Positions 21,384-40,834 of a stretch of DNA of 64,000 nt are shown one piece after another (positions within the stretch are counted from its first letter, which is position 1; each line of letters opens with the position of its first letter). The notes beneath the pieces are model-generated. The model worked only from the letters and a program-made list of their open reading frames with translations. It had not been told where the DNA came from and did not search any database. Origin of the DNA: a virus (lineage: Duplodnaviria; Caudoviricetes); IMG/VR virus record IMGVR_UViG_3300021255_004427, positions 128,001 to 192,000 of that record; one strand, 5' to 3'. The translations under genes were made by a program, and so were the position numbers.

Positions 21384-22370
21384 ATGTCAATGACAAGTAT
21401 TAAGCAAATAAATGGCGGCAAAGAACTTCAAGGCGATGTTCACGCCCTGTTAAATATAGTTGGAAAAGATAAGGAAGCGTTCTTTAATGAAATACTGAAC
21501 TGGCTTTTGTCGGAAGCGCCGCAGGATTTTAATCCAGAAATTCTTAAGAGCAGCAAGCTGGTTAAGCTGGTTAGTTCGGCAGTAATGGTAAATAATGAAG
21601 AGCCTGAAAAACCATATCTTAGCTTTGTGGAAGAAAATAATGAACCATTTACGCTAAAAACTAACGGTAAAAACTGGGATGGTGCCTTAGAATACTCGAC
21701 AGACACAGAAAATTGGTCAGAATGGGACGGTACTGAGGTTAGTTCTTCTAATGACGGAAAATTGTATTTAAGAGGAACGGGCAATACTGTAATTTCGCAA
21801 GGCTTACCATTTATTTTTACGGATAATAAGAGAATCCAATGTTTTGGTAATATAGAAAACTTGTTGGACTATCAAGCTGTTATAGTAGGTAATCACCCAA
21901 CAATGAGTCAAAGTTGCTTTGACTCATTGTTCTGCGGGTCGTGCCTTATTACAGCGCCAGAATTGCCATCAACAGATTTAGCTTCAAACTGTTATAGTTT
22001 TATGTTCTATGAATGCACACTCCTTGAAAAAGCGCCGCAATTACCTGCTATAAATCTACAAGATTATTGTTATGCTGTTATGTTCCAAAATTGCACCGCT
22101 CTTAAAGAAGCTCCTGAGTTACCTGCAACAGAGATGCATGAACTCTGCTATGGAAATATGTTTGCAGATTGTACATCTCTTATTAAACCACCAACTCAAC
22201 TTCCTGCGTCGGCATTGGCGTCAAACTGCTATAACAGCATGTTCAGAAACTGCACTTCTCTTGCGGGTAGTATTCATTGCCCTGCTTCTACTGCATCAGA
22301 TCCTAACAGACTTGATGCTAGTACAGATAATTTACCCGCTAATACTGCTACCGTAGTATATGACTTGTAA
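21384..22370 (+). CDS. Virion fibre/adhesin-like protein with LPAxxLxxxCYxxMF repeats
   Basis: N-terminus shared with 34185 and 37120. Repeat domain and C-terminus (PANTATVVYDL) shared with 35941. Confidence 0.75.
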   Translation: MSMTSIKQINGGKELQGDVHALLNIVGKDKEAFFNEILNWLLSEAPQDFNPEILKSSKLVKLVSSAVMVNNEEPEKPYLSFVEENNEPFTLKTNGKNWDGALEYSTDTENWSEWDGTEVSSSNDGKLYLRGTGNTVISQGLPFIFTDNKRIQCFGNIENLLDYQAVIVGNHPTMSQSCFDSLFCGSCLITAPELPSTDLASNCYSFMFYECTLLEKAPQLPAINLQDYCYAVMFQNCTALKEAPELPATEMHELCYGNMFADCTSLIKPPTQLPASALASNCYNSMFRNCTSLAGSIHCPASTASDPNRLDASTDNLPANTATVVYDL

Positions 22371-22388
22371 ACAAAGGAGTATTTTTAT

Positions 22389-24566
22389 ATGCTTTCACTA
22401 GCTCAGACCATAAAAGATTTAAAAAATAATATAGTAAATATCTTAAACACCATGGCACCTAAAACATATGTCGACAAAAAGGTAGCTGATTTGGTTAATG
22501 GAGCGCCGGCACAATTAGACACCCTGCAGGAATTATCCAAGGCTCTTAACAATGACAAAGATTTTGGAGCAACTGTTAATAACGCCATTGCTAAGAAACT
22601 GGATTCAGCTGGCGGCACCATTACAGGTAACTTAACGGTAAAAGGTACTTTGACGGCTAAAGCGTCCACGGCCGGTACAGCAGATAGAGCCTTAAAAGCT
22701 GATACATGTACGGGTAACGCAGCTACAGCTTCCAGCGTGTCCTGGTCCGGCATAACAAATAAGCCGACCAGTTTTACTCCGACGATTGCAGCAGAAGTAG
22801 CAGGAACAGCCCCCGCTGCTGGCCAAATCGTGAGAGTAAATAGTCTCGGTGCTCTGATTACCAATGATTTGCTGAAAACGGTGCGCGCTGCAGGAACCGA
22901 TGCTGATATCAGTAAGTTAGTTGCTGAACCTATTTCCATGAAGGAAATGTTTTCAAACTGGCAGAGAATCAGCTGCGCGGCAAATGGCCAGAATCAAAAC
23001 TCGAACAGCAGTGACCAAACCACAGCCCGTGCTTGTTACTATTATGACGACAACACCAGAACCATTGTGTGCCCCAATAACTCTGACCCGTTCTCGGCAT
23101 TTGTTAGCTCAGACAGTTATGCTCCGGATTATCGAATAAAATACCAACTTACAGGACGCGACGGTGATGACGACGGTCTCTGTTTTATAGCAGGATTTAT
23201 GGTGGATAAAGCTGGTAAGTTCCATACACTTACGGTTTGGCGTATGGGCGACAATGAAACGCAAGCTCCTGACCCGATTTCAGACTACAAGGCATCGTCC
23301 CATCAGGCTCGTTTTGCTATTTGCTACGATGTATACGCCGCCTGGATGCCGCAAAGTCCCAATGGAATCGTATTAGCGCGCACGGTTGCGCCACTTAAAA
23401 CCGACTGGTATACGAAAACATGTCTTTGCGAAGTTCAAAAAACTTCCACGCAAATTATTGCGAAAACGGCAGATGTCAACTCCACTGACATGAAGTACAC
23501 GTTAACATTCACTTTGCCTTCTTCAAAACCCGCCGACTGGTCACAAGAAGCTTATGATAACATTAAATTCATGATGCAGAATTCTTCTCAAATCGGTTTT
23601 GGTACGCAATCTAATCCATGTTCATTTAAGATTTTGGAACAGACTGGGTCAATTACGGCTATTACAGTATACAACGTAAACACTGGTAAAAAGCTTACGT
23701 ATATGAACGGAGCAAAGCAGAGCGAAGTTGATGACAGCAATGTTCTAACTCCTGGATGTTTCTTGTATTCCACGATTACTAAGAAGTTGTTCTACGTTAA
23801 GAATAAGGATATGGTAGTTCTTATCGACAACGGCGGAGAAGATATCCTAACTAACAAAAATATCGTTAAAAACGGTACGCCGACAAAAGATGTCTCGTTA
23901 AGGTACGAGACGGAAAACGGTAAAAACGTCGTAATTCCTTACGTAGATGGAGTAAAAGTACCGTTATCTGCGAATACTTGGGATTCCATTACAGGTAAAC
24001 CATCAACATTCGCACCATCCAGTCATAGTCATGGTTGGGGAGAGATTAGCAATAAACCGGCACAAGCAACGAGATGGCCGACTTGGGGCGAGGTATCAGA
24101 AAAGCCTACCTCCTTTACGCCTGCTGCACATAGCCATGGATGGGATTCTATTACAGGCAAACCATCGACTTTTGCGCCCTCCGGCCATAGTCATGCATGG
24201 GATTCCATTACGGGTAAGCCGTCAACATTTACGCCATCTAGCCATAACCATGCGTGGAGTAATATCACTGGCGCACCGGCCACGGCTACGCGTTGGCCGA
24301 CCTGGGATGAAATAACAGGCAAACCCGCTACCTTCCCGTCTAGTGGTGGCGGTACAGCGTCCAGTGTGGCATGGAATAATATTACAGGTAAACCATCAAC
24401 TTTTGCACCGTCCAGCCATGGTCATGCATGGGGAGAGATTAGTGGAGCTCCGGCGCAGGCGACCAGATGGCCGACATGGAGCGAAGTTTCCAGTAAACCC
24501 GGAAGGATCGTTACCGTTGCATCTTGGGATGCTAGTACGGGCGTTCTTCAGTTAAAAACCGTGTAA
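22389..24566 (+). CDS. Tail fibre protein
   Basis: LVNGAPAQLDTLQELSKALNND motif, KLDSAGGTITGNL, GNAATAS, and multiple WxxITGKPSTFxPSxHxH and TRWPTW repeats. Confidence 0.9.
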   Translation: MLSLAQTIKDLKNNIVNILNTMAPKTYVDKKVADLVNGAPAQLDTLQELSKALNNDKDFGATVNNAIAKKLDSAGGTITGNLTVKGTLTAKASTAGTADRALKADTCTGNAATASSVSWSGITNKPTSFTPTIAAEVAGTAPAAGQIVRVNSLGALITNDLLKTVRAAGTDADISKLVAEPISMKEMFSNWQRISCAANGQNQNSNSSDQTTARACYYYDDNTRTIVCPNNSDPFSAFVSSDSYAPDYRIKYQLTGRDGDDDGLCFIAGFMVDKAGKFHTLTVWRMGDNETQAPDPISDYKASSHQARFAICYDVYAAWMPQSPNGIVLARTVAPLKTDWYTKTCLCEVQKTSTQIIAKTADVNSTDMKYTLTFTLPSSKPADWSQEAYDNIKFMMQNSSQIGFGTQSNPCSFKILEQTGSITAITVYNVNTGKKLTYMNGAKQSEVDDSNVLTPGCFLYSTITKKLFYVKNKDMVVLIDNGGEDILTNKNIVKNGTPTKDVSLRYETENGKNVVIPYVDGVKVPLSANTWDSITGKPSTFAPSSHSHGWGEISNKPAQATRWPTWGEVSEKPTSFTPAAHSHGWDSITGKPSTFAPSGHSHAWDSITGKPSTFTPSSHNHAWSNITGAPATATRWPTWDEITGKPATFPSSGGGTASSVAWNNITGKPSTFAPSSHGHAWGEISGAPAQATRWPTWSEVSSKPGRIVTVASWDASTGVLQLKTV
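23977..24500 (+). repeat. Degenerate in-frame tail-fibre repeats
   Basis: Repeated tgggattc.attac.gg.aa.cc.tc.ac.tt and tggccgac.tgg units. Confidence 0.85.
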
Positions 24567-24578
24567 AGGATGTAGTCT

Positions 24579-25247
24579 ATGTCTCTTATTATTTCTGACG
24601 GCGAGCCAAAAGATATACAACTAAATGGAACCGCCGTAAAAGAAGTTTGGTTTGATGGCAAAAAAGTTTGGCCTATCTTTGCCGTTATTATAGATGAATA
24701 CACTGTAACTGGCACTCTTATCACGAAAGACTATTGGTACACTACAATCGAAGAATGCTCCGGAGAATGTTATCAAGATCCTCACGGCAGTATGTCAGAC
24801 CGGAACTGCGACTGTTATGGCAGAGAAGGATATGAGCTTGCTACCTGCTATAGGCTGGAGCTCACATTTAGTGGCAAGATAGATCACCTTCCGATAAAAT
24901 ATATTTCCAAATCTGGGGCTACAGTAATCATAGAGGCTAATAAGCTAAAGCACGACAAAGATAAGAATACCTACACCCATGAGTTCGATACTATGGATAC
25001 CCTTGAAGAAATTCAATCCATATATCCAGATACGGGCGTAACAGACTATAGCATTATTAAGTCCTGCGATATTACGGAACAAAAATATGAGGCACCAGAA
25101 CTAGATTGTGATTGTGGTGAAGAAAACTGTGAAAACGACTGTATAAATTGTGTGAGTGATGACTGCCTTAGTGATATGGGTGACTGCGATTGTGCGGATT
25201 GTTCCGACTGTGATATGGACTGTGATATGGACTGTGGTTTGGATTAA
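24579..25247 (+). CDS. Fibre-associated protein with a Cys/Asp-rich C-terminal tail (candidate radical SAM substrate)
   Basis: N-terminal IQLNGTAVKEVWFDGKKVWP motif. The last 47 aa hold 12 Cys, each preceded by D or N. 12-bp tandem gactgtgatatg at 25206-25241. Confidence 0.75.
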   Translation: MSLIISDGEPKDIQLNGTAVKEVWFDGKKVWPIFAVIIDEYTVTGTLITKDYWYTTIEECSGECYQDPHGSMSDRNCDCYGREGYELATCYRLELTFSGKIDHLPIKYISKSGATVIIEANKLKHDKDKNTYTHEFDTMDTLEEIQSIYPDTGVTDYSIIKSCDITEQKYEAPELDCDCGEENCENDCINCVSDDCLSDMGDCDCADCSDCDMDCDMDCGLD

Positions 25248-25261
25248 TATAAGGAGCCGAT

Positions 25262-26290
25262 ATGATAATAAAAAGAATATTTCTTATGCTTGGCCCGAAA
25301 TGCAACCTTCAATGCAAGTATTGCTTGCAGCATGACATGGTGGATCATGACAGTACCATAGTCAAGCCGGAAGTGAAAGAATGGATACAAAGCAAGGTGC
25401 CGACAGATTTTGACGCACCTTTAACCATTACGTTTTACGGTGGCGAGCCGTTGGTCTATTGGGGCGCTATTAAAGATGTCGTGCAGAGTATTACCGGTAA
25501 CGTCAACTACGGCATAATTTCTAATGGCAAGCTCATGACTCCCGATAAAGTCGACTTTATTAACGATTACGATATCGGCGTGGCAATCTCGTGGGATGGC
25601 GCTAACGTAGAAGAAACCCGTGGCTATGATGCTGTCAAAAGCAACCCAAATATCTTAGATATTAAACGGCTAAGCTTTTCAGCAGTGCTTAGCTCGCATA
25701 CTTATCCGAGAGATTTTTTAGACGAACTTGATCCGATCATGGGAACGTATAGACGAATTCATGGAAATTCTCCTGGGGTTAATATAGATACGATAATGGA
25801 CTTTGGTAATTGTGGTGAATTACGCGAGATGGATTGCTCAAAAATTGAAGAGCAAATGCGTTACATAATTCAAAACAAAAAAAATAATTCAGCCTATTAT
25901 CGTATCGTTAACCGCTGGCAGAAGCGATATGTCTTTTACCGCAAATACGTAGACAAGACGCCTCTTTGCGGTAACGGCTATGCCGTATGGAACGTAGACG
26001 TTAACGGCGATGTATATCGTTGCCATAACTGCGGCGAAAAAGTCGGCACAATATTTGAACCTCCTGAAGTCGTGCTGGACAGGGTAAAGAAAATGGATCC
26101 AACATACAAAAACTATCAGGAAAAATGCAAAGATTGTCCGGCACAGCCTCTATGCCGCAGCGGCTGCCCGCTAATAGATTCTCAAGGAAGAGAAGACTAC
26201 TACTGCGACATTAAAAAGGCATTCTTATATCCTTTAATCGAAGATATGAATGTGCCTAAAGAAACAGGAAGGATAATACATATTGGATAA
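25262..26290 (+). CDS. Radical SAM enzyme with a SPASM domain
   Basis: CNLQCKYC (CX3CX2C), FYGGEPL, SNGKL, ISWDG. SPASM cysteines CGNG..GDVYRCHNC..CKDC.....CRSGC...YYC. Confidence 0.93.
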   Translation: MIIKRIFLMLGPKCNLQCKYCLQHDMVDHDSTIVKPEVKEWIQSKVPTDFDAPLTITFYGGEPLVYWGAIKDVVQSITGNVNYGIISNGKLMTPDKVDFINDYDIGVAISWDGANVEETRGYDAVKSNPNILDIKRLSFSAVLSSHTYPRDFLDELDPIMGTYRRIHGNSPGVNIDTIMDFGNCGELREMDCSKIEEQMRYIIQNKKNNSAYYRIVNRWQKRYVFYRKYVDKTPLCGNGYAVWNVDVNGDVYRCHNCGEKVGTIFEPPEVVLDRVKKMDPTYKNYQEKCKDCPAQPLCRSGCPLIDSQGREDYYCDIKKAFLYPLIEDMNVPKETGRIIHIG

Positions 26291-27038
26291 TAGTATAGTT
26301 AGAAAGCAATCCGCTTATGTACCGCAAGAGCAACTCATCTTAGGCAATGTGCTTGGAAGTGCACACTATGGACTTGCGGATGAATGGTCTGATCAGGACG
26401 TATGCTATCTACTGATGCCGTCTAAGCAAGACTTAATCCGCGGACGAAAACCTCAGCGCCTGTTGTTTATGGATCAGTGCGACGTCAGTATGTTTGACAT
26501 TCGCAGCCTTATGTTCTTTATCGCTGAAGGCGATATTAATAAACTAGGACTGCTCTTTAACGATGACTGTATGTATGTAGCTCCCCAGTTTAAGGATTTT
26601 GTTGACCAGCTTGTTGCGCGGCGAGAAGATTTAATCAATACTATATCGCCGTCCATACATGCTTGGGCTTTAAATATGTTTGAGTATAAATTGGGACAAA
26701 TCCATTACTACAAGGACACCGAAGAGAAATACAAGCAGTTCGGTTACAATACGAAGAATGTGGCGCAGGCTATTTATTATATCCGTATAGCCATGCAGTA
26801 TTTCATCAACCGTAACTACAGCGTAGAAAATCCTATGCTAAAAGCCTATGATTGCTCCGGCTTTCGCGATGAAATCCTAGATATCAAACACGGTAAGTAC
26901 TCGGAAGAGGAGGCTGTAGCTATAGCTGAAGCAGAATACGCGAAATTAATCGGCATTACTAACTTAGGAAGAAACCATAACGTAGGTTGGGTTAATCAGC
27001 TGGTTTACGACGAAATAGAAAAAATGTTAGGAACGTGA
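26283..27038 (+). CDS. Pol-beta superfamily nucleotidyltransferase (RlaP/PF10127-like)
   Basis: GSAHYGLADEWSDQD (GS..YG...SDxD), YNTKN and ILDIKHGKY motifs. Confidence 0.8.
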   Translation: MDNSIVRKQSAYVPQEQLILGNVLGSAHYGLADEWSDQDVCYLLMPSKQDLIRGRKPQRLLFMDQCDVSMFDIRSLMFFIAEGDINKLGLLFNDDCMYVAPQFKDFVDQLVARREDLINTISPSIHAWALNMFEYKLGQIHYYKDTEEKYKQFGYNTKNVAQAIYYIRIAMQYFINRNYSVENPMLKAYDCSGFRDEILDIKHGKYSEEEAVAIAEAEYAKLIGITNLGRNHNVGWVNQLVYDEIEKMLGT

Positions 27039-27044
27039 CGAATC

Positions 27045-27563
27045 ATGCTAACCTTACCTCAGATAATAAAAGACTTATTATCTAAAGCTAAAACCATTAG
27101 TAATAATATCACAGAAACTTATATTAAGAATTTAATCACTACGGAAATAGAGCGCTCTATTTCTTCTTCTACTGATGGGCCATTATATTTAGCTATTAAA
27201 AACGCGGCTTTTACCAACCTTCCTCCCAAAATTGGTTATGGCAAAGAAAAGACGCTTACAATCACCCCCGTCGGTGGACAGTTAAAAGTAAATATCCCCT
27301 CACAGGCAATATACTTAGGTGGATTCGGCAGTATTATCCCCGCGCAAACAATAAGCCTGCCAGCTAATCAGGATAATTACATTTATGTAGTCCGCGACGC
27401 CGCCGACTATACAAAAGTAAGCTTTGAGATTTACGACCACTTACTTGGCGGAAAAGATAAAGATATCCACTTTACCCGTATTCTTTGCGCCCGCTTTAAG
27501 ACGGATGGTTCTAAGGTTATTGAACAGGAGGCGTTCGAGACAGCGAACTATTCCTGTTTTTAA
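27045..27563 (+). CDS. Virion protein, minimal member of the NLPPKIGY paralog family
   Basis: Shares N-terminal and C-terminal blocks with 27585 and 30134. Confidence 0.75.
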   Translation: MLTLPQIIKDLLSKAKTISNNITETYIKNLITTEIERSISSSTDGPLYLAIKNAAFTNLPPKIGYGKEKTLTITPVGGQLKVNIPSQAIYLGGFGSIIPAQTISLPANQDNYIYVVRDAADYTKVSFEIYDHLLGGKDKDIHFTRILCARFKTDGSKVIEQEAFETANYSCF

Positions 27564-27584
27564 TAATATACATGGAGAGATTTT

Positions 27585-30137
27585 ATGTTAACGCTACCAT
27601 TAACCTTAAAAGATTTAAAGAATTCTATAGGAACAGCGTACACTACGGTTACAAACGCCACCTTCCTAAATCGCATTAAAAATCGCATTAAGGAATCCAT
27701 CAACACGAATTCCTCATCTGGTGAAATATACAATGCTGTTAAGGATGCAGCGTTTACAAATTTGCCGCCCAAAATCGGCTATCTCGACGAAAAGACTGTC
27801 CCGATGTACGCTGCTTACAATATGAGCAACATGGCCGTGACCGACTTACCCTGTTGGATTACTTCGGACTTGGAAGGGAGAGAGATTACCTATTTTAGAG
27901 CGTCTCAGGACGGAGCGCATGGCCTTCAGATATATCGCGCCTTTAGAAGTAACTTATCTGACACGAACGGCTATACTGTAGAAAATCAGCCACTAGCAAT
28001 AACGATTGATGGCGTAGATACAAAGTTTAATCGTGTATATGGTATCTCTAACGATTATATTGTCTTACAGGCAGAAAATGGAAAACGCTACCATTTTGCT
28101 ACTTACTATTCTTCCAATACGGACAACTGGAAGTTAATGCGAGAGGTTACTCATTTTAATAGCTACGGCGATGTAATGGATATACTTTGGTTCGATTCGG
28201 TAAAAAGATACCTTGTTGTATGCCAAACTGGACAGGGAATGGTATATCTCGTTGCAGATGAAAATCTGAACGAAATGTATCGCGATATGGTCTTTGACTT
28301 TACGAAGTTTCACCATAGCGGCAAACCAACTTGGACGTATCATTATAGCACGTATGGCAATACGGCTTCTGCAGCATATATACCAGACCAGAACCGGCTG
28401 GCAACCGTATTCCGAATGGATGCGAATGTCAGAGAAAACGGCTTTGTCATTTACAACTCGGATATGGCGCATCATCCATTGTATTGTAATACCATCAGTA
28501 ATTTTACCCCAGACAAACTACTGACGAATCATTACTTCGCTACGGCGCAGTGGGATACCCCGTTAGCCACTTATTACGATGCGGCAAAGTGGGATTGGTG
28601 GGGCGACAATACGGTTAAGATGGCTACGGGATTAACCAGTCGTGGCACAGAATACTGTCAATATGACTCGCTGAATAAAATGTTTTATTACACACATGGT
28701 GTTCGCGACTGGGCCGGCGTATATATCAAGCGTATCGCCGTTGAAAACCTAAGTTCAAGGGCTGGCACTCGTTTTTTGGATGACAACGCTGGACAAGGAT
28801 GGAACTGGCAAACGCCAGACACTTCTCCGTGGGCCAAGCAAACATATGCCCCTTCCGTGATGTATGACTCTATCGTTTTGCGTGCGCAGTCTAACAAGTA
28901 CGGCGGTGCGTGGAATAATATTATTATTGCGCCGGAGGCGACATCCAACGCAAATATACTGGCTGTTACGGCAGGCTCGTGGGCTGTAGGTGGTGGCGAT
29001 ATAACAAATATTGACTGGGCCGCTGGGTATGGGCGTTATTCCTGCACGAAGGAAAACTTCAATACTAAAGATGGCGTGTCATGGTATCAAATTCTGGAAG
29101 AGAATGGATACTACAATGTTTACCGTCTGGATTATAAAGCTCGTAAGGATCAGGTTGGCAATACTTACAACGACAATGTGTATCGTCCCGCAAGCCCTAT
29201 AGCTAAATTTAAAAAGACTCTTAACTTTGTTGGAGGCATAACGTCATTTGGTTCTTGGGCTTTTAGAAGCGCATCTTTTGGCGGCGGTAATAAGCTCATC
29301 ATCTTCGGGCGCATTTCAAGCAATTATAAATGTGTGAAGAATAGTGAAGACAAGTACGTTCCGCAAGACGAGAACGCTATGCCAGCCTATTATATTATCT
29401 CGGAAGATGGAAACTATTACAAGGTAGATTTACCGCAAAACATGCGCGACTGGTATTTATCTGAAGCAAGTGACCGATGGCCATATATCCGAAATCCAGA
29501 TTGGGTTAATCGCACGCCCTTCTTGGATAGTGATGGTCTGACGCTCTATTATAATAGTCATGAGTTCTATCATGGTAATGGCGATTACTGCTTCGCTGGT
29601 TGGAGAGTAATTTTTTCTTCCGACCTTAAGACTGCCACGAAAGTTGATTCTGTAGCTGCAGGTGATGGCACATGGTGTGGCATCGAAGTTCTTGGTTGGA
29701 ATAAGCGCTTCGGTTATTACCGTACCCGCACCAGAAACCGTACAGGCTCTTTAATTGATACCAGTGCTACAAACCCGGTTAATGTTATTAATCTTGGTGG
29801 CGACGTAAAAACATATACCATTAATAATAGTGGCTCGGTAGGTCTAATTGCTTATATTCAGGCAACGCCTATTTATCTCGGCGGCTATTACAGCGTGCTG
29901 CCCGCTACGGAAGTATACTTAAAAGCCAATAGCGATAATTACATTTACTTATCCAGAGATAAATTGGACTACCAGAAGATAAACGTAGAGAATTACGACC
30001 ATTTGCTAGGGGCGCAGAATAATGATATGGGCATTAACTTCTCCCGTATCCTTATCTCGAAGATAACTACGGATAATAAAAGTGCTACGAGTCAGGAGTA
30101 TTTTAATATCGATTATTATGGAGCAAGCAAGTCATGA
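27585..30137 (+). CDS. Large virion/receptor-binding-like protein (NLPPKIGY family with an aromatic-rich beta insert)
   Basis: 850 aa. Termini match 27045, and the centre is rich in W/Y/N/G. Confidence 0.75.
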   Translation: MLTLPLTLKDLKNSIGTAYTTVTNATFLNRIKNRIKESINTNSSSGEIYNAVKDAAFTNLPPKIGYLDEKTVPMYAAYNMSNMAVTDLPCWITSDLEGREITYFRASQDGAHGLQIYRAFRSNLSDTNGYTVENQPLAITIDGVDTKFNRVYGISNDYIVLQAENGKRYHFATYYSSNTDNWKLMREVTHFNSYGDVMDILWFDSVKRYLVVCQTGQGMVYLVADENLNEMYRDMVFDFTKFHHSGKPTWTYHYSTYGNTASAAYIPDQNRLATVFRMDANVRENGFVIYNSDMAHHPLYCNTISNFTPDKLLTNHYFATAQWDTPLATYYDAAKWDWWGDNTVKMATGLTSRGTEYCQYDSLNKMFYYTHGVRDWAGVYIKRIAVENLSSRAGTRFLDDNAGQGWNWQTPDTSPWAKQTYAPSVMYDSIVLRAQSNKYGGAWNNIIIAPEATSNANILAVTAGSWAVGGGDITNIDWAAGYGRYSCTKENFNTKDGVSWYQILEENGYYNVYRLDYKARKDQVGNTYNDNVYRPASPIAKFKKTLNFVGGITSFGSWAFRSASFGGGNKLIIFGRISSNYKCVKNSEDKYVPQDENAMPAYYIISEDGNYYKVDLPQNMRDWYLSEASDRWPYIRNPDWVNRTPFLDSDGLTLYYNSHEFYHGNGDYCFAGWRVIFSSDLKTATKVDSVAAGDGTWCGIEVLGWNKRFGYYRTRTRNRTGSLIDTSATNPVNVINLGGDVKTYTINNSGSVGLIAYIQATPIYLGGYYSVLPATEVYLKANSDNYIYLSRDKLDYQKINVENYDHLLGAQNNDMGINFSRILISKITTDNKSATSQEYFNIDYYGASKS

Positions 30138-32533
30138 TGTCACTAGCACAAACAATAAAGCATTTAAAAAATACGATAACGAATTATACTAACTTTATCA
30201 ATAGCAAGTCTATCGAGAACTTCGCTACCACTAAGATAGTCAATTATATTAACGGAACTGAAGGCGGCGCAAAATCTATCCGCAATATGATTAAAAATAG
30301 AACGTTTAAAAATTTGCCGCCGAAAATTGGCTACTTCAATGAAACCACCGTACCGTTAATTGCTAACTTCAATATGTCGATTAACGCGGATGCTCCGTGG
30401 GTAATTTCGGACGACCAAGGACGAGAGCTAATGTATTTCCCTGCGAAGGGGAGTCCTACGGACTCGGTTAAGGTATTCAGAGCATACCGCATGAGCACAG
30501 GTTCAGGCTTCATCTATGAAAACGAACCGATAATTCCAGGCTACCTTGAAAACGACGGCAAATATCTAACCAACATACGTGGACTAGGCAATCAATACAT
30601 GGTTGCTATCACAACGGGCGGAAGGGTTCATATCATTAATACTTTTGGTGAGCCGGATACATGGACGTTAGAAGCAGATATTACCGATTTATACAACTCT
30701 GTTCCAGATATTCGCCTGAGCGTTATCTACTTTAAGGAATATGGTACGATTTACATTCCCGGCACTGTAGGAGATGGCCATAATATTGGAGGCCGATTAT
30801 ACAAGGTATCTACTGGCGAGCTAATAAAGACAGATAAAATCTTTGATTTTGTACAGGTAATTGGAGAGCAAAACTCAAACATAAAAACGATGTATGCTGA
30901 AATAGGAGACGCTGCCGCGGTTTATAACGAAGCAACGAGCGAAATGGCTTGGCTTGGACGTAGCTATATTCAATGGTACAACTCGGATAACTCGGTAAGT
31001 GCAAATTATCATTCCATGTTAGTGCTGTGCGACTGCCCCAAAGAGCATTTTATGGATGGACGAGAGACGTTAGTTAATAAAATACCAAACAGCGAATATA
31101 AAATACAAGCGCACAAAAGAGGGTTATGCCCGCGAGGAGATAGCGGAATGAGGCACGCTACGTACGACTCGATGGAAAAGGTAATTCGAACCGTTTATCG
31201 ATATCAGAGTTCAGATTCAATTGATTTGTTTACCAGAAGTGCTACATCTTCAGTAAGTCATGCCTGTGATTACTTCTTAGGCGGACTTGTCACATCTGGT
31301 ATTCAAAGCTCTGATGCTGCGCCATGGGCTAAACGAATGATGCAGCCTGTGGTTTATAACGACGATACATATTTGTATGGCATAAGTAAGAAATATGGCG
31401 GACAGCGTATCCATGTGGATTTTGTGACAGACGGCAACGGATTGTGCAATATAACAGCGGGAACGTGGTGGCTGTCCGGGTCGTATGGGGATTGTGGAGA
31501 CTTGTCCTTACCTCTGATCTCTTGTGTTAAAACAGAGGACTCGTCTAAATTTTATTACACCGACGACAGCAATATTGTAAGGGAAGTACGTACAGAAAGC
31601 TTTACCGCTGACGACTACGCACGAAACGGTAGACGGTATTTAGTTAATACCGACATTAAGGCCCCATCGATTCCAACGGGTTATTTCATTAAATCGAGGA
31701 TGTATAATCCTAAGTGGAATAAATGGTTCTTTATATCCGAAAAGAGTGGTACAGCTTTAGTTGGTGATACTTTCCTATTAGAATACGATATCGCAACTGG
31801 AGCATGGACTGAACATTGGGATGAACGACCACAGTCGTGGCTGGATGCTGCGCAAGCCTCTTTAGGCAGCTTGGGTAATCGTTCGGGATGCAGCGTATCG
31901 TCAAATGCATTCATTGATGATGATGGTACCATGTATTTTAAAATATGTTTTAATTACATCGGTGGAGCAGGAGATGCGCACCTAATAAAATTGACTCGCA
32001 CTGGAACTAACTATACGATGACGCCAGTTGGCGGCGCGGTAATGTCCGGCACTTACGCTTCCAACCATCATATGTTTGGCTGGAATAACAAGTATCATTA
32101 CTTCTTTGCGTGGGGGTCAGTAGTAGGAACTACGGAATCTCGAATTTATTCTACTAGGCATTGGGGAGATTCACCAGACAAGCCTAACGGCGCAAAGTCA
32201 TTATTTGAAGACGGTGATTACTATACTTGGCGTTTTGTATGTGCCAGCGCTACTGGTATGGTTTGCTATCTGCAGGATACTCCGGTATTCTTAGGCGGTT
32301 ATTTTTCTACGGTTCCCGCTAAGGAAATTCCACTTAAACCGAATTCTGCTAACTATATCTATTTCCATAGAAATAGTGATGATTACAAGGTAGTAGACGT
32401 AGAGGTAACACAGTCGCCGCGAAATGATGTGGACGGTTTTAACCGTATCTACCTTACCAAGGTGGTAACCAACGCTGACGGTCCTGTATCACAAGAATAT
32501 AATCAGATAGATAATTATCATAAGAAAAAGTAA
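30134..32533 (+). CDS. Large virion/receptor-binding-like protein (paralog of 27585)
   Basis: 799 aa with NLPPKIGY..E.TVP, GRE..YF.A, D..PWAK and LGGY.S..PA motifs shared with 27585. Confidence 0.75.
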   Translation: MMSLAQTIKHLKNTITNYTNFINSKSIENFATTKIVNYINGTEGGAKSIRNMIKNRTFKNLPPKIGYFNETTVPLIANFNMSINADAPWVISDDQGRELMYFPAKGSPTDSVKVFRAYRMSTGSGFIYENEPIIPGYLENDGKYLTNIRGLGNQYMVAITTGGRVHIINTFGEPDTWTLEADITDLYNSVPDIRLSVIYFKEYGTIYIPGTVGDGHNIGGRLYKVSTGELIKTDKIFDFVQVIGEQNSNIKTMYAEIGDAAAVYNEATSEMAWLGRSYIQWYNSDNSVSANYHSMLVLCDCPKEHFMDGRETLVNKIPNSEYKIQAHKRGLCPRGDSGMRHATYDSMEKVIRTVYRYQSSDSIDLFTRSATSSVSHACDYFLGGLVTSGIQSSDAAPWAKRMMQPVVYNDDTYLYGISKKYGGQRIHVDFVTDGNGLCNITAGTWWLSGSYGDCGDLSLPLISCVKTEDSSKFYYTDDSNIVREVRTESFTADDYARNGRRYLVNTDIKAPSIPTGYFIKSRMYNPKWNKWFFISEKSGTALVGDTFLLEYDIATGAWTEHWDERPQSWLDAAQASLGSLGNRSGCSVSSNAFIDDDGTMYFKICFNYIGGAGDAHLIKLTRTGTNYTMTPVGGAVMSGTYASNHHMFGWNNKYHYFFAWGSVVGTTESRIYSTRHWGDSPDKPNGAKSLFEDGDYYTWRFVCASATGMVCYLQDTPVFLGGYFSTVPAKEIPLKPNSANYIYFHRNSDDYKVVDVEVTQSPRNDVDGFNRIYLTKVVTNADGPVSQEYNQIDNYHKKK

Positions 32534-32586: not shown

Positions 32587-32664
32587 ACCCCTTAGATGGG
32601 TACGACAAAATGGGCGGTCGTTTTTGGCCGCCATTGTTATGTCTGAAGAAAGGAAAAGGTAATC

Positions 32665-33336
32665 ATGGATACTAAAACCTACAACGTAAATCTTAAAGCT
32701 AAGAAAACTTCTTGGGGAGGGCTTGCTTTTAACTTAAGTAAAAACGGAAAATTACTGGGCGGAGTTAATAAGCCTATGGACAGTGAAATGGCTTTGATTT
32801 TGACTAATGAAAAACATTTAATGGATCAATTTTATAATCCGTACGAAAATTTGGAATATATTCCAGATGAATTTATCCTTGCGCCAGACTTAACTACTTG
32901 CCAAGAAATGTTTGCGTACGGAACAAGTTTAAAATCAATCAATTTATCTTTATTTGACACGTCTAATATGACAAGCTTATATTGGATGTTTGCATGGTGT
33001 GAATCTCTATTAGAAGTAGATGTAAGTAGCTTTAACACAAGCAAGGTAACACATTTCGGCGGAGTTTTTATGAATTGTCACGCCTTAAAATCGTTAGACC
33101 TAACCAGTTGGGATACATCAAATGGAAAGTTTTTTAGTAATATGTTTAGTCAATGCTACGAGTTAGAAGAGATTAAAGGAGTCATAGATATAACCAAAGC
33201 AGGCACTGGTTTTAGCGGAATGTTTGGAAACTGCGATAAGTTAAAACAGATTAAAATAAAAGCTACGCCAGACCAGCAACGATATTTCCGTAGCACAGCT
33301 GAGCTTAACTCCAGTACTGAAGTTATCTTTGTGTAA
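32665..33336 (+). CDS. BspA/DUF285-like leucine-rich repeat protein
   Basis: LxxLDLSxFDTSxVTxMxxMFxxC-type repeats. Confidence 0.85.
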   Translation: MDTKTYNVNLKAKKTSWGGLAFNLSKNGKLLGGVNKPMDSEMALILTNEKHLMDQFYNPYENLEYIPDEFILAPDLTTCQEMFAYGTSLKSINLSLFDTSNMTSLYWMFAWCESLLEVDVSSFNTSKVTHFGGVFMNCHALKSLDLTSWDTSNGKFFSNMFSQCYELEEIKGVIDITKAGTGFSGMFGNCDKLKQIKIKATPDQQRYFRSTAELNSSTEVIFV

Positions 33337-35940: not shown

Positions 35941-36957
35941 TTGACCATGAACAGACTCAAGACTTATGAGGTATTATTAAGGGCGTTAGATAATACCTCC
36001 CTAGCCACAATTGATATTAGTGTAAACAAAAAAGGAAAAAATATTTTCCAACGCACCAAGGGCGTAGAGGCAAATGGATTCCCTGTGCCTTACCTTAGTT
36101 TTATAGAAGAAAACAAGAGCCCATTTACGTTAAAGACAACGAATACTCAAAAAAACTGGAATGGAAAATTAGAATATTCTACGGACAAGAAGATATGGAA
36201 CGAATGGAACGGAGAGGAGATTTCTTCTTCTGATAACGGCGAATTATTTTTGCGAGGAGAAAACAATTCTCACATTGTAGACGCAGCAAAAAAAGCATCA
36301 GAGCAACCATTCGTGTTCAGTGACAACAATCGAATACAATGCATCGGAAACATCGAAACGTTACTTGACTGTAAAATGGTAATGAATGGGGAGCATCCGC
36401 GTATGGATGACAGGTGTTTTAGTGCGCTTTTCTACAAAGCAAAATCATTGACATCCGTATATGAATTAGAATTACCTGCAAAGCAATTGACGTACGCATG
36501 CTATAATGCTATGTTTTGCGACACATCAATCACGAAAACACCAAAAGAATTACCTGCCATTTCTTTAGCAGAAGGTTGTTACAGTGCTATGTTTCAAGGC
36601 TGTGCAGATTTAATTGAAGCGCCAAAAACACTACCTGCGAAACAAACTTTTACATATAGCTATTCCAGTATGTTTTCCCAGTGCAGCGCCTTGGTTAGTG
36701 CGCCCGAAATATTAGCTACGTCTATGGGAGTAGGTTGCTGTAACGCCATGTTTAGCGAGTGCGATTCGCTTATTACACCTCCTTCTAAGTTGCCTGCAAC
36801 TAACCTGGGAAAAGGATGTTATACAGGCATGTTCATTGGGAGCTATAAGTTAAATGGAACAATCCACTGTCCTACATCTACGGCCAATGACCCCAACAGA
36901 CTTGACATTAACGTCGATATTCCAGCTAATACAGCTACCGTAGTATATGACTTATAA
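35941..36957 (+). CDS. Adhesin-like repeat protein (N-terminus of the LRR family, body paralogous to 21384)
   Basis: KTYEVLLRAL N-terminus, YLSFIEEN.PFTLKT, LPAxxLxxxCYxxMF repeats, PANTATVVYDL end. Confidence 0.8.
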   Translation: MTMNRLKTYEVLLRALDNTSLATIDISVNKKGKNIFQRTKGVEANGFPVPYLSFIEENKSPFTLKTTNTQKNWNGKLEYSTDKKIWNEWNGEEISSSDNGELFLRGENNSHIVDAAKKASEQPFVFSDNNRIQCIGNIETLLDCKMVMNGEHPRMDDRCFSALFYKAKSLTSVYELELPAKQLTYACYNAMFCDTSITKTPKELPAISLAEGCYSAMFQGCADLIEAPKTLPAKQTFTYSYSSMFSQCSALVSAPEILATSMGVGCCNAMFSECDSLITPPSKLPATNLGKGCYTGMFIGSYKLNGTIHCPTSTANDPNRLDINVDIPANTATVVYDL

Positions 36958-39259: not shown

Positions 39260-40834
39260 ATGCTTTTAGATGCTAAGCAAATGGATCCTAAATTTGAGCT
39301 TTGGTATAAAGAGTTCATGAGAACTCGTTTTCCTGAAATCGTTGATTATGAGTTGGTCTTTAACGATAATGGATATGTGGCGGAACAGGACGAAAAAGGC
39401 CGCTACGTTGTAAATATGGATAAGGGTGTTAATCTATCGATAGATAAACTCCCACAAAAAGTTAACGCATTCTATAAGAACAAGGCTGCCGGAGAACTGA
39501 ATATCCATTGGGATGCAGCTGTTCGCAACTATAACCCAAACAAGAGTGGCGAGCAGGTTTTGCGCGCAGGCCTCGAAGTGGGCGTATATAATCCCATGAA
39601 CTTGACTCCGGAACTGGTTATGCTTATTGCCCGTAGCGAAAAGATTTCCTTGCAAAACTGGTGGAAGAATAGCGCCAAAGTTAAGGAAGTAAGCTATCTT
39701 AATGGCACGAAGGCAGAAGACTTCGCTGTTTTGGAAGATTACTATATCACCGATATGACCCACGCTTTTGCTGGTGCAAGTGAAGTAGAAAGCCTTCCTG
39801 AACTGGCTACCGAGAAAGATAATTCTCTTACCAGCCTGGCTTACGCCTTCGATGGCTGCGCAAAGCTGAAGGCTGTTCCGTCTATCGCAACCGTCGGCGT
39901 AACCGATATTGAAGGCGCATTCCGTGGATGCGAATCCCTGACGGATCTAAGCGGTATGGATTTGAGCAATAGCTATATGATTGCTCACGCATTCAGTGGC
40001 TGTAAAAACCTGAAGAAGCTCCCGAATCTATCTGGTTTAGCTACGGCAACTCCGAGCAGCTTTGTCGACGCATTCCGTGGTTGCTCCAGCCTTCCTGCAG
40101 TGTTCCCTTATACGATTAACGTATCCAGCGTAACAAACCGCAATAACTTTGGCGGCATGTTTGAGGGCAGTTCCGTCAAGGAAATCACTGTTCGTTACGA
40201 CGGTGAAACTATTCCTGAATACATTTGCCCGCTCTTTATGGGTAACGCATTGGAAAAAATCACCATCGTGAATGCTCAGGGCGAAGTTCGTGAAGTCCGT
40301 ACCCAGGCAAATAACCCGTCTATGATTTCTTACTTAGCTGCAGGAGACAGCAAACTGATTGTTCCGGCAGGCGTTTCTTCCATGAAGGTTGCTCTGGTAT
40401 CTGGCGTAAGCTATAGTTATAGCACAGTAGATATCAAACACATCGCCGTTAAAAATAATCCGTCCTCGATTAAGCGCGGCGAAGAAGAAGTAATCACTTC
40501 AAACAAGGCAGCTGGAGAACGCGGTCATTACTTCGACTACATGGGTAGCCAGGAACAGCATGGTGGTTTCCCGGCCATGTTTGATGCTCAATACGAAGAC
40601 TATAGCAATGGCCAGGTTTATTGCTGCGGCGTAGGCGGCGGCAAACAGCTCACCAAGTATTGCCATGCTTGGGGCGCATTGGAAAACAGCTTCGTACAGG
40701 ATACGGTAGCAGTTACTCCGGGTGAAGAACTGACGATTAGCGTCGGCAATGGTAGTGCTTCTGGTGACTGCACGTTCAATAAGAAACCGGGCAATGGCTT
40801 GTATAATGGCTACGTTTTAGTAGAGTTCCAGTAA
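39260..40834 (+). CDS. Virion protein with BspA/DUF285-like repeats and a Gly-rich C-terminal domain
   Basis: AFxGCxxLxxLP repeats, LIVPAGVSSMKVALV and VTPGEELTISVGNG...NGYVLVEF. Confidence 0.8.
   Translation: MLLDAKQMDPKFELWYKEFMRTRFPEIVDYELVFNDNGYVAEQDEKGRYVVNMDKGVNLSIDKLPQKVNAFYKNKAAGELNIHWDAAVRNYNPNKSGEQVLRAGLEVGVYNPMNLTPELVMLIARSEKISLQNWWKNSAKVKEVSYLNGTKAEDFAVLEDYYITDMTHAFAGASEVESLPELATEKDNSLTSLAYAFDGCAKLKAVPSIATVGVTDIEGAFRGCESLTDLSGMDLSNSYMIAHAFSGCKNLKKLPNLSGLATATPSSFVDAFRGCSSLPAVFPYTINVSSVTNRNNFGGMFEGSSVKEITVRYDGETIPEYICPLFMGNALEKITIVNAQGEVREVRTQANNPSMISYLAAGDSKLIVPAGVSSMKVALVSGVSYSYSTVDIKHIAVKNNPSSIKRGEEEVITSNKAAGERGHYFDYMGSQEQHGGFPAMFDAQYEDYSNGQVYCCGVGGGKQLTKYCHAWGALENSFVQDTVAVTPGEELTISVGNGSASGDCTFNKKPGNGLYNGYVLVEFQ

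Follow-up and report, generated by a model that had tools for sequence, protein, structure and literature searches.

Introduction

Radical S-adenosylmethionine (SAM) enzymes are known to cross-link secreted peptides, and a very small number of cellular proteins, after translation. PapB joins Cys to Asp or Glu (PMC9413430, PMC12373016), NxxcB of streptococci forms a thioether between Cys and an upstream Asn (PMC9389541), and whole proteins receive thioethers from the radical SAM/SPASM enzymes QhpD, which acts on QhpC, and CrpC, which acts on CrpA of Methanococcus voltae (PMC13692751, 2026). This protein thioether cross-linking in a methanogen is the nearest published concept to the system described here (PMC13692751); a search of the full-text literature found no paper tying radical SAM enzymes to Cys-rich phage fibre proteins, and none placing such cross-linking on a virus particle. 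Our study concerns the IMG/VR virus record IMGVR_UViG_3300021255_004427, one 224,101-bp phage contig, of which the whole stretch analysed (64,000 nucleotides, positions 128001-192000; hereafter the window) holds, within an operon of tail-fibre genes, the gene for a radical SAM/SPASM enzyme directly behind that for a 222-aa Cys-rich protein, its partner. Gene content and conservation make it fairly probable, in our judgement, that the enzyme modifies the Cys-rich segments of this partner.

Conservation of the enzyme–partner pairing

Homologues of the enzyme were collected from the protein database (77 sequences, at identities from 95 % down to 24 %), and 168 loci were taken from IMG/VR and GTDB genomes for an analysis of their neighbours. 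To be counted as (D/N)C-tailed, a neighbouring open reading frame (ORF) had to lie on the same strand no more than 3 kb away, to encode 60 aa or more, and to have a minimum of four Cys and three [DN]C dipeptides in its last 45 residues. Such a neighbour was present in 47 of the 52 distinct loci with enzyme homologues scoring 190-300 bits. The original prediction for this locus, made from the DNA letters, had proposed chemistry of the kind seen in peptides that are made by the ribosome and modified after translation (RiPPs) on a virion protein, and had named homologous enzymes without a Cys-rich neighbour as an outcome that would speak against it; tested on these loci, the prediction was not refuted. 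(D/N)C-tailed ORFs made up 90 of the 656 lying near the enzyme genes and 0 of the 989 lying farther off in the same loci. Several of the loci scored negative still hold Cys-dense neighbours, with CQxCQ repeats or, in the form of a 672-aa protein, with a terminal N-C/D-C run.

The partner takes several forms, and its N-terminal part differs among clades. In the window's clade it has 180-220 aa and is encoded upstream of the enzyme; in other clades the tail is carried by proteins of 210-460 aa. In a large clade of Acidaminococcaceae/Veillonellaceae prophages the enzyme gene lies directly behind a fibre gene of ~500 aa, with up to three small proteins of 16-21 Cys around it. Prophages of Acidaminococcus, Megasphaera and Succiniclasticum were seen to share this layout (L091:4048-7373 and ~40 similar loci, L014-L047 and L090-L102), and their small proteins, which match no curated family, have CQxCQx repeats and end in N-C/D-C runs plus S-D-D or G-D-D. 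A C-[GS]-D-D ending, a few residues before the C-terminus, was found in 44 of 68 distinct tails of related families, and this ending lay outside the neighbour selection rule. The window itself shows every feature by which this uncurated phage pairing can be defined, namely an (N/D)C tail with an acidic/Gly end and a radical SAM/SPASM gene within ~3 kb of each other in a fibre module.

Seen from the side of the partner, an exhaustive profile search found 28 relatives. An enzyme gene whose product is 46-56 % identical to the window's lies directly downstream in all four of the Cys-bearing homologues whose contigs were fetched, these four being 27-34 % identical to the partner over the BLASTP-aligned part. 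Where the Cys are missing, the enzyme is altered or missing too. In locus L171 a Cys-less partner homologue adjoins a 307-aa enzyme homologue that has lost CX3CX2C and GGEP and retains the SPASM Cys, and in L169 the fibre gene and a Cys-less homologue are followed by a gene for a 77-aa protein, not by an enzyme gene, on a contig of only 1.6 kb. These Cys-less cases are few and all in the same direction. The gene order in L171 (L171:4476-7621) is fibre, a 61-aa protein consisting only of the N-terminal tag described below and an acidic D-C tail, a 107-aa N-terminal enzyme fragment with CX3CX2C, the Cys-less double-domain partner homologue, the 307-aa homologue and a nucleotidyltransferase. The arrangement looks like the outcome of recombination or duplication, with an inactive enzyme left next to a partner that has no Cys.

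The two genes also diverge jointly. In two sister phages from IMG/VR, of 184 and 211 kb, the proteins around the pair are 93-99 % identical to those of the window, whereas the partner is only 60 % and the enzyme 71 % identical. A nucleotide comparison with the sister phage L001, in sliding windows of 100 nt, gave 98 % identity for the first 100 nt of the partner gene, which encode the tag, 26-67 % for the rest of that gene, 57-78 % for the enzyme gene and 80-88 % for the start of the nucleotidyltransferase gene, with 94-100 % from ~26750 onward. Because the partner body and the enzyme both diverge while the tag and the flanks (95-100 %) stay conserved, the former two appear to be exchanged, or to evolve, together, the tag staying with the conserved end of the fibre. 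In a quick maximum-likelihood tree the window's enzyme fell in a clade with 98 % support (Shimodaira–Hasegawa-like approximate likelihood ratio test, SH-aLRT), all members of which have the window's type of partner except L012, with a 454-aa tailed protein. The partner label corresponds to one change on this tree, on a weakly supported uniting branch (60), and was as clustered in 0 of 500 shuffles; the automatic labels are rough, as some loci labelled 'none' are incomplete at their ends.

The partner as a candidate substrate

The partner contains 18 Cys in total, and no other ORF in the whole genome has a dense (D/N)C region (Table 1). The original prediction had stated that each of the 12 Cys in its last 47 aa follows Asp or Asn, and a recount agreed (12 of 12); the tail has 18 acidic and no basic residues, and 12 [DN]C dipeptides were reached in 0 of 200,000 shuffles of it. 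Its spacings include seven CxxD/E and four CxxxD/E. The 12-bp tandem duplication reported within it is likewise real, and it is polymorphic, since P0078, a metagenomic homologue with 98 % identity, is shorter by one unit. The tail stands as a Cys-rich candidate target beside an internal loop (residues 59-90) that the original prediction did not mention. This loop is kept in 9 of 9 aligned partner homologues, whereas the tail varies in length and is lost in two of the nine, both of which still keep the enzyme, so the original focus on the tail was too narrow. By its conservation, the internal loop is the stronger candidate target of the two.

An AlphaFold2 model of the partner, built with nine sequences, showed a beta-sandwich core (residues 39-55 and 85-169) at a predicted local distance difference test score (pLDDT) of ~80. 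Residues 59-82 and 173-222 scored under 50, and these low-confidence segments coincide exactly with the two Cys-rich parts. Only generic immunoglobulin (Ig)-like beta-sandwich matches were returned for this fold by Foldseek against the PDB and BFVD and by VIA-align against 48,161 chains (best Z 4.8); as far as the model goes, these searches assign no family and give no evidence of a new fold. Neither the partner nor the Cys-rich parts of six Cys-tailed proteins from other clades matched a curated family in Pfam, PHROG or NCBIfam, and tblastn of the partner against 50,697 GenBank phage records gave zero matches.

The claim that the N-terminus of the partner is typical of fibre-associated proteins was upheld, as this tag recurs on other small proteins after fibre genes. 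It heads the unrelated small proteins P0102, P0105 and P0108 as well as Cys-less homologues behind fibre genes, and this recurrence, together with its 98 % conservation, argues for a docking tag on the fibre or virion and not for a leader read by the enzyme. A link of the partner to fibres is further supported by a 463-aa protein of a related lineage, which ends in a similar (D/N)C tail and matches many tail-fibre PHROGs, and by the large sister clade, in which the gene directly before the enzyme is itself a tail fibre. Small genes on the opposite strand were seen between fibre and partner in a 52 %-identity relative (L007:4743-5045 and L008:4683-5349); they encode a helix-turn-helix protein and, in L008, additionally a RelE-like one, and they break up a fibre–partner junction that is close elsewhere.

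These observations bear on whether the partner belongs to the virion at all. It could instead be a large RiPP-like precursor or effector, with the N-terminus as its leader and a modified Cys-rich end that is released at lysis, for instance to act like a bacteriocin or to scavenge metal. An N-terminus that is conserved, a C-terminus that is variable and rich in Cys and a radical SAM gene next door would suit such a protein, and CrpA and CrpB have the same layout (PMC13692751). However, the operon neighbours gave no protease, peptidase or (ABC) transporter match in Pfam or PHROG, the gene lies between fibre genes of one operon, and the relative just mentioned carries its tail on a protein that matches tail-fibre PHROGs. 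The leader itself was rejected on two grounds, as the tag remains 98 % identical while the enzyme drops to 71 %, and as it also stands on Cys-less proteins that have no radical SAM enzyme. A precursor of this kind is thus very improbable.

A second alternative removes the partner as substrate. Its Cys/Asp segments would only coordinate metal (Zn, Fe or Fe-S) or be joined by disulfides, and the enzyme would have another target, such as the large fibre or a small molecule produced jointly with the nucleotidyltransferase. Alternating Cys and Asp/Asn without a basic residue do resemble metal-binding sequences, the fibre has HxH repeats of the metal-binding type, and in locus L005 (41 % identity) the enzyme lies between fibres with no Cys-rich neighbour within 6 kb. 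We nevertheless regard metal binding or disulfide formation as distinctly unlikely, for it leaves the near-obligate co-occurrence, the joint loss and the joint divergence of the two genes unexplained, and most clades that keep the pairing have no nucleotidyltransferase.

The radical SAM/SPASM enzyme

The enzyme is the only radical SAM protein encoded in the whole genome. It had been described as an intact CX3CX2C and SPASM protein without an N-terminal RiPP recognition element (RRE), and each part of this description was borne out. The cluster motif is formed by Cys14, Cys18 and Cys21; among 31 homologues the latter two never vary and conservation of C14 is 90 % or more, and the seven-Cys SPASM motif is complete (C236-x12-G249-x4-C254, C289-x2-C292-x5-C298-x3-C302, C315) and invariant throughout the same set. 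Membership of the radical SAM superfamily was assigned by PF04055 (38.4 bits, cut-off 29.5) and that of the SPASM group by TIGR04085 (40.5 bits, cut-off 27). No PqqD or RRE match was found in the enzyme with Pfam. Its best solved relative in a profile search of the PDB is CteB (5wgg, E 1e-31), and an RRE is judged to be missing because the radical SAM core starts at the N-terminus and the alignment begins only at CteB residue 95. The enzyme accordingly lies outside the RRE-dependent class of RiPP maturases, of the CteB, QhpD and CrpC type.

Assignment to a single family was less clear-cut. The top NCBIfam match was PapB (NF047865), at 88.7 bits against a cut-off of 340 (E 4e-25), followed at a distance from their own cut-offs by the QhpD model (61 bits, cut-off 453) and the anaerobic sulfatase maturase (anSME) family TIGR03942 (51.1 bits, cut-off 349); TIGR04463 was not among the 25 best matches, and the label of PHROG 1802 is merely 'radical SAM domain-containing protein'. 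The enzyme reached no family cut-off and is thus a member of a SPASM family outside the curated ones. Its nearest families are PapB, QhpD, CcpM, SCIFF/CteB and anSME, all of which act on Cys-containing peptides or proteins. A viperin-like or nucleotide-modifying radical SAM enzyme was considered and rejected, given the full SPASM domain and a score of 46.6 bits against 180. Co-folding of the enzyme (with three 4Fe-4S clusters and SAM) with partner residues 160-222 gave a score of 0.01, the mark being 0.32, a result that counts neither for nor against binding.

Distance from the curated families leaves room for other chemistry on the same substrate: sactionine bonds (sulfur to C-alpha), formylglycine as made by anSME, C-C cross-links, or inter-chain links that lock the fibre trimer. 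All curated family scores fall far below cut-off, the anSME structure 4k37 is among the best PDB matches of the enzyme profile (E 6e-19), the sister clade has CQxCQx repeats, and the [DN]C dipeptide, which is invariant, cannot be matched to any one described donor-acceptor spacing. Against this, the top sequence matches (PapB, QhpD, SCIFF and CteB) are thioether formers, and the partner has no C/S-x-P/A-x-R, the target motif of anSME. We consider such other chemistry unlikely.

Relatives of the enzyme in the GenBank phage records are only 22-32 % identical. Annotations call the radical SAM maturases of phages hypothetical proteins, sulfatase maturases or genes of 'antibiotic synthesis'. Achromobacter phage JWF and Ralstonia phage RSP15 carry ~24 % identical enzymes within tail modules. 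Both were rejected as examples of the pairing, being too distant; JWF has no clear Cys tail and RSP15 only a short N-C-Q-C end. The latter belongs to ORF048 of RSP15 (L173:2236-3108), a 'side tail fiber fragment' that ends N-C-Q-C-G-N two genes before the 24 %-identical radical SAM/SPASM homologue, and which is possibly a distant instance of the pairing theme in a cultured phage.

Genomic context

Table 1. Features of the fibre operon in the window
Feature	Position	Strand	Basis
Radical SAM/SPASM enzyme, 342 aa, without N-terminal RRE	25262..26290	+	PF04055, TIGR04085, CteB profile match
Candidate substrate (partner), 222 aa: N-terminal tag, Ig-like beta-sandwich core, two (D/N/E)C-rich disordered segments	24579..25247	+	Homologues, AlphaFold2
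N-terminal tag, ~34 aa, probable fibre/virion docking piece	24579..24680	+	Conservation; recurrence on other proteins
Internal Cys-rich loop, residues 59-90 (Cys 60, 64, 77, 79, 90), between two beta strands	24753..24848	+	Homologue alignment, low pLDDT
C-terminal (D/N)C tail, 47 aa, 12 Cys, ending C-G-L-D	25104..25244	+	Sequence count
12-bp tandem repeat GACTGTGATATG, coding D-C-D-M, 2.6 copies	25206..25236	+	Tandem Repeats Finder (TRF) score 62, 100 % match
Tail fibre, 725 aa, repeated HxH/GKP units	22389..24566	+	Tail-fibre PHROG families down to E 6e-43
Pol-beta-type nucleotidyltransferase, 251 aa	26283..27038	+	phrog_388, E 1.5e-14
Three fibre paralogues, 172, 850 and 799 aa, closing the operon	27045..32533	+	BLASTP paralogy; fibre's N-terminal tag in common

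The contig encodes a DNA polymerase, a RecJ-like exonuclease, helicases and many fibre genes. Among the named genomes with homologues of the enzyme, those closest to the window belong chiefly to the Negativicutes (Selenomonadales, Acidaminococcus, Megasphaera, Succiniclasticum and Phascolarctobacterium), which suggests an anaerobic gut bacterium as the host; a few further matches are to Elusimicrobiota, Ruminococcus and Lachnospiraceae.

On the + strand the operon runs from a 328-aa repeat protein through the tail fibre, the partner, the enzyme and the nucleotidyltransferase to the three fibre paralogues. Fibre and partner genes are separated by 12 nt and partner and enzyme genes by 14 nt, the latter gap with an AAGGAG inside, and the start of the nucleotidyltransferase overlaps the enzyme gene by 8 nt. 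A scan of the + strand run from ~21384 to 32533 found no convincing internal terminator, and the sole strong + strand terminator-like site (32613-32632) lies after the last fibre paralogue. Promoter scanning gave a site count not above that of shuffled sequence.

The nucleotidyltransferase has the pol-beta motif G[GS]-x9-13-D-x-[DE], with G25-S26 and D37-x-D39 invariant. Its AlphaFold2 model (pLDDT 85.7) resembles the kanamycin nucleotidyltransferase ANT(4') and Hailong HalB (Foldseek E ~1e-4, TM 0.36-0.43), and a Pfam RlaP match of 18 bits against 23 places it outside that family. It adjoins the enzyme only in the window's clade, and is therefore not part of the core pairing. In locus L177 the nucleotidyltransferase gene stands upstream of the partner and not downstream of the enzyme, with lysis genes (XhlA-like, amidase) after the cassette.

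The C-terminal third of the tail fibre consists of about nine repeats with HxH and GKP motifs; in the tip of T4 gp37, HxH repeats are metal-binding. The C-terminal end of the fibre is conserved in the sister phages, whose versions measure 594 aa and 340 aa and have fewer repeats or a different middle domain. A start tag of ~15 residues (M-L/M-S/T-L ... K-D/H-L) is common to four fibre-type genes, at 22389, 27045, 27585 and 30134, and the 172-aa paralogue resembles a minimal, head-plus-tail form of the 850-aa one (46-49 % identity at both ends). Repeat proteins of leucine-rich type, with a Cys in every repeat (phrog_9915), flank the fibre genes at 21384-22370, 32665-33336, 35941-36957 and 39260-40834; the 328-aa repeat protein is among the most variable genes between the sister phages (55-67 % identity).

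Proposed mechanism and significance

We propose that the partner would be a small fibre-associated protein that docks through its N-terminal tag of ~34 residues. The RRE-less enzyme would modify two flexible, acidic segments of it, the internal loop and the (D/N)C tail, in the anaerobic cytoplasm of the host, before or during fibre assembly. The likeliest reaction would be the formation of intramolecular ranthionine-type bridges, thioethers between a Cys sulfur and an Asp or Asn side-chain carbon. By analogy this is the best-supported reading of the bond, since PapB and NxxcB link Cys to Asp/Glu and to Asn, and QhpD and CrpC act on whole proteins. Such bridges would tie a floppy segment up into a compact knot that resists proteases, and enzyme and target would evolve as one exchangeable cassette in the host-range region. 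Phages that carry the pairing probably modify a part of the fibre chemically.

Several observations weigh against this proposal. Two close homologues, L007 and L089, retain the enzyme with the Cys-rich tail absent, so the tail is not the sole target and may not be obligatory, and L005 combines an enzyme among fibres with no Cys-rich neighbour. The beta-sandwich core has no significant structural relative, which makes 'adhesin' an argument from gene position only. The CX3D/E pattern of PapB fits only 4 of the 12 tail Cys, and with the enzyme far below every curated cut-off the type of reaction is extrapolated.

On a broader scale, and with more reserve than for the modification of the partner itself, we suggest that the pairing might represent a widespread step of virion maturation in the phages of anaerobes, in which RRE-less radical SAM/SPASM enzymes staple fibre-tip proteins and the cassette is swapped together. 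In this tentative scheme the enzymes would recognise their targets by a follower in place of a leader, namely an (N/D)C ladder at the C-terminus that closes with an acidic/Gly end. The staples could possibly run between chains, and might possibly have a new donor-acceptor geometry, from Cys to the adjacent Asp/Asn.

If this is true, radical chemistry of the RiPP type would for the first time be known from a virus particle. The fibre tips of many gut phages would hold covalent staples that are invisible to structure prediction, and correct folding of such fibres would require cells that are anaerobic and Fe-S-competent, a point that bears on the expression of receptor-binding proteins. For protein stapling, the phages would also be a rich natural source of RRE-less enzymes that come with compact C-terminal tags. 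Cultured hosts of related prophages exist (Acidaminococcus fermentans and Megasphaera sueciensis), and the question is for this reason directly testable.

Comparison with known systems

In T4 (gp38) and lambda (Tfa), a small gene directly after the long fibre gene encodes a protein with a conserved attachment part and hypervariable segments. The phage partner is like these proteins in gene position and in its layout of conserved attachment and variable segments; PHROG and fold searches found no sequence or fold similarity to them, and to our knowledge no such gene-after-fibre protein needs a radical SAM enzyme.

PapB and PapA (freyrasin) share with the window a radical SAM/SPASM gene beside a Cys- and Asp-rich substrate, whereas the phage substrate is a 222-aa protein with a folded domain and an invariant [DN]C dipeptide, encoded in a fibre operon with no protease or exporter. 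For the same reasons of size, folded core and fibre neighbours, the locus departs from a classical RiPP cluster, in which a short precursor with a leader is accompanied by a protease or exporter. NxxcB and NxxcA, compared by description, offer the likeness of a Cys-Asn thioether, and a (D/N)C run necessarily has N-x-x-C spacings, but the substrate of NxxcB is a short quorum-regulated peptide. CteB, which matures CteA (SCIFF; 5wgg/5why), has the same radical SAM core plus SPASM; the phage enzyme, with CX3CX2C from residue 14, differs in missing the leader-binding N-terminal RRE of CteB. The QhpD/QhpC and CrpC/CrpA systems share with the phage pair a whole-protein substrate whose N-terminal part is conserved and whose C-terminal part is acidic and rich in Cys. 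Those systems, however, are cellular (an enzyme subunit in the case of QhpC, with the role of CrpA unknown), and both of their enzymes use an RRE. Set beside all of these, what would be new in the locus described here, as read from its sequence, is a RiPP-type radical SAM/SPASM maturation that is RRE-less, phage-borne and aimed at a protein of the fibre module.

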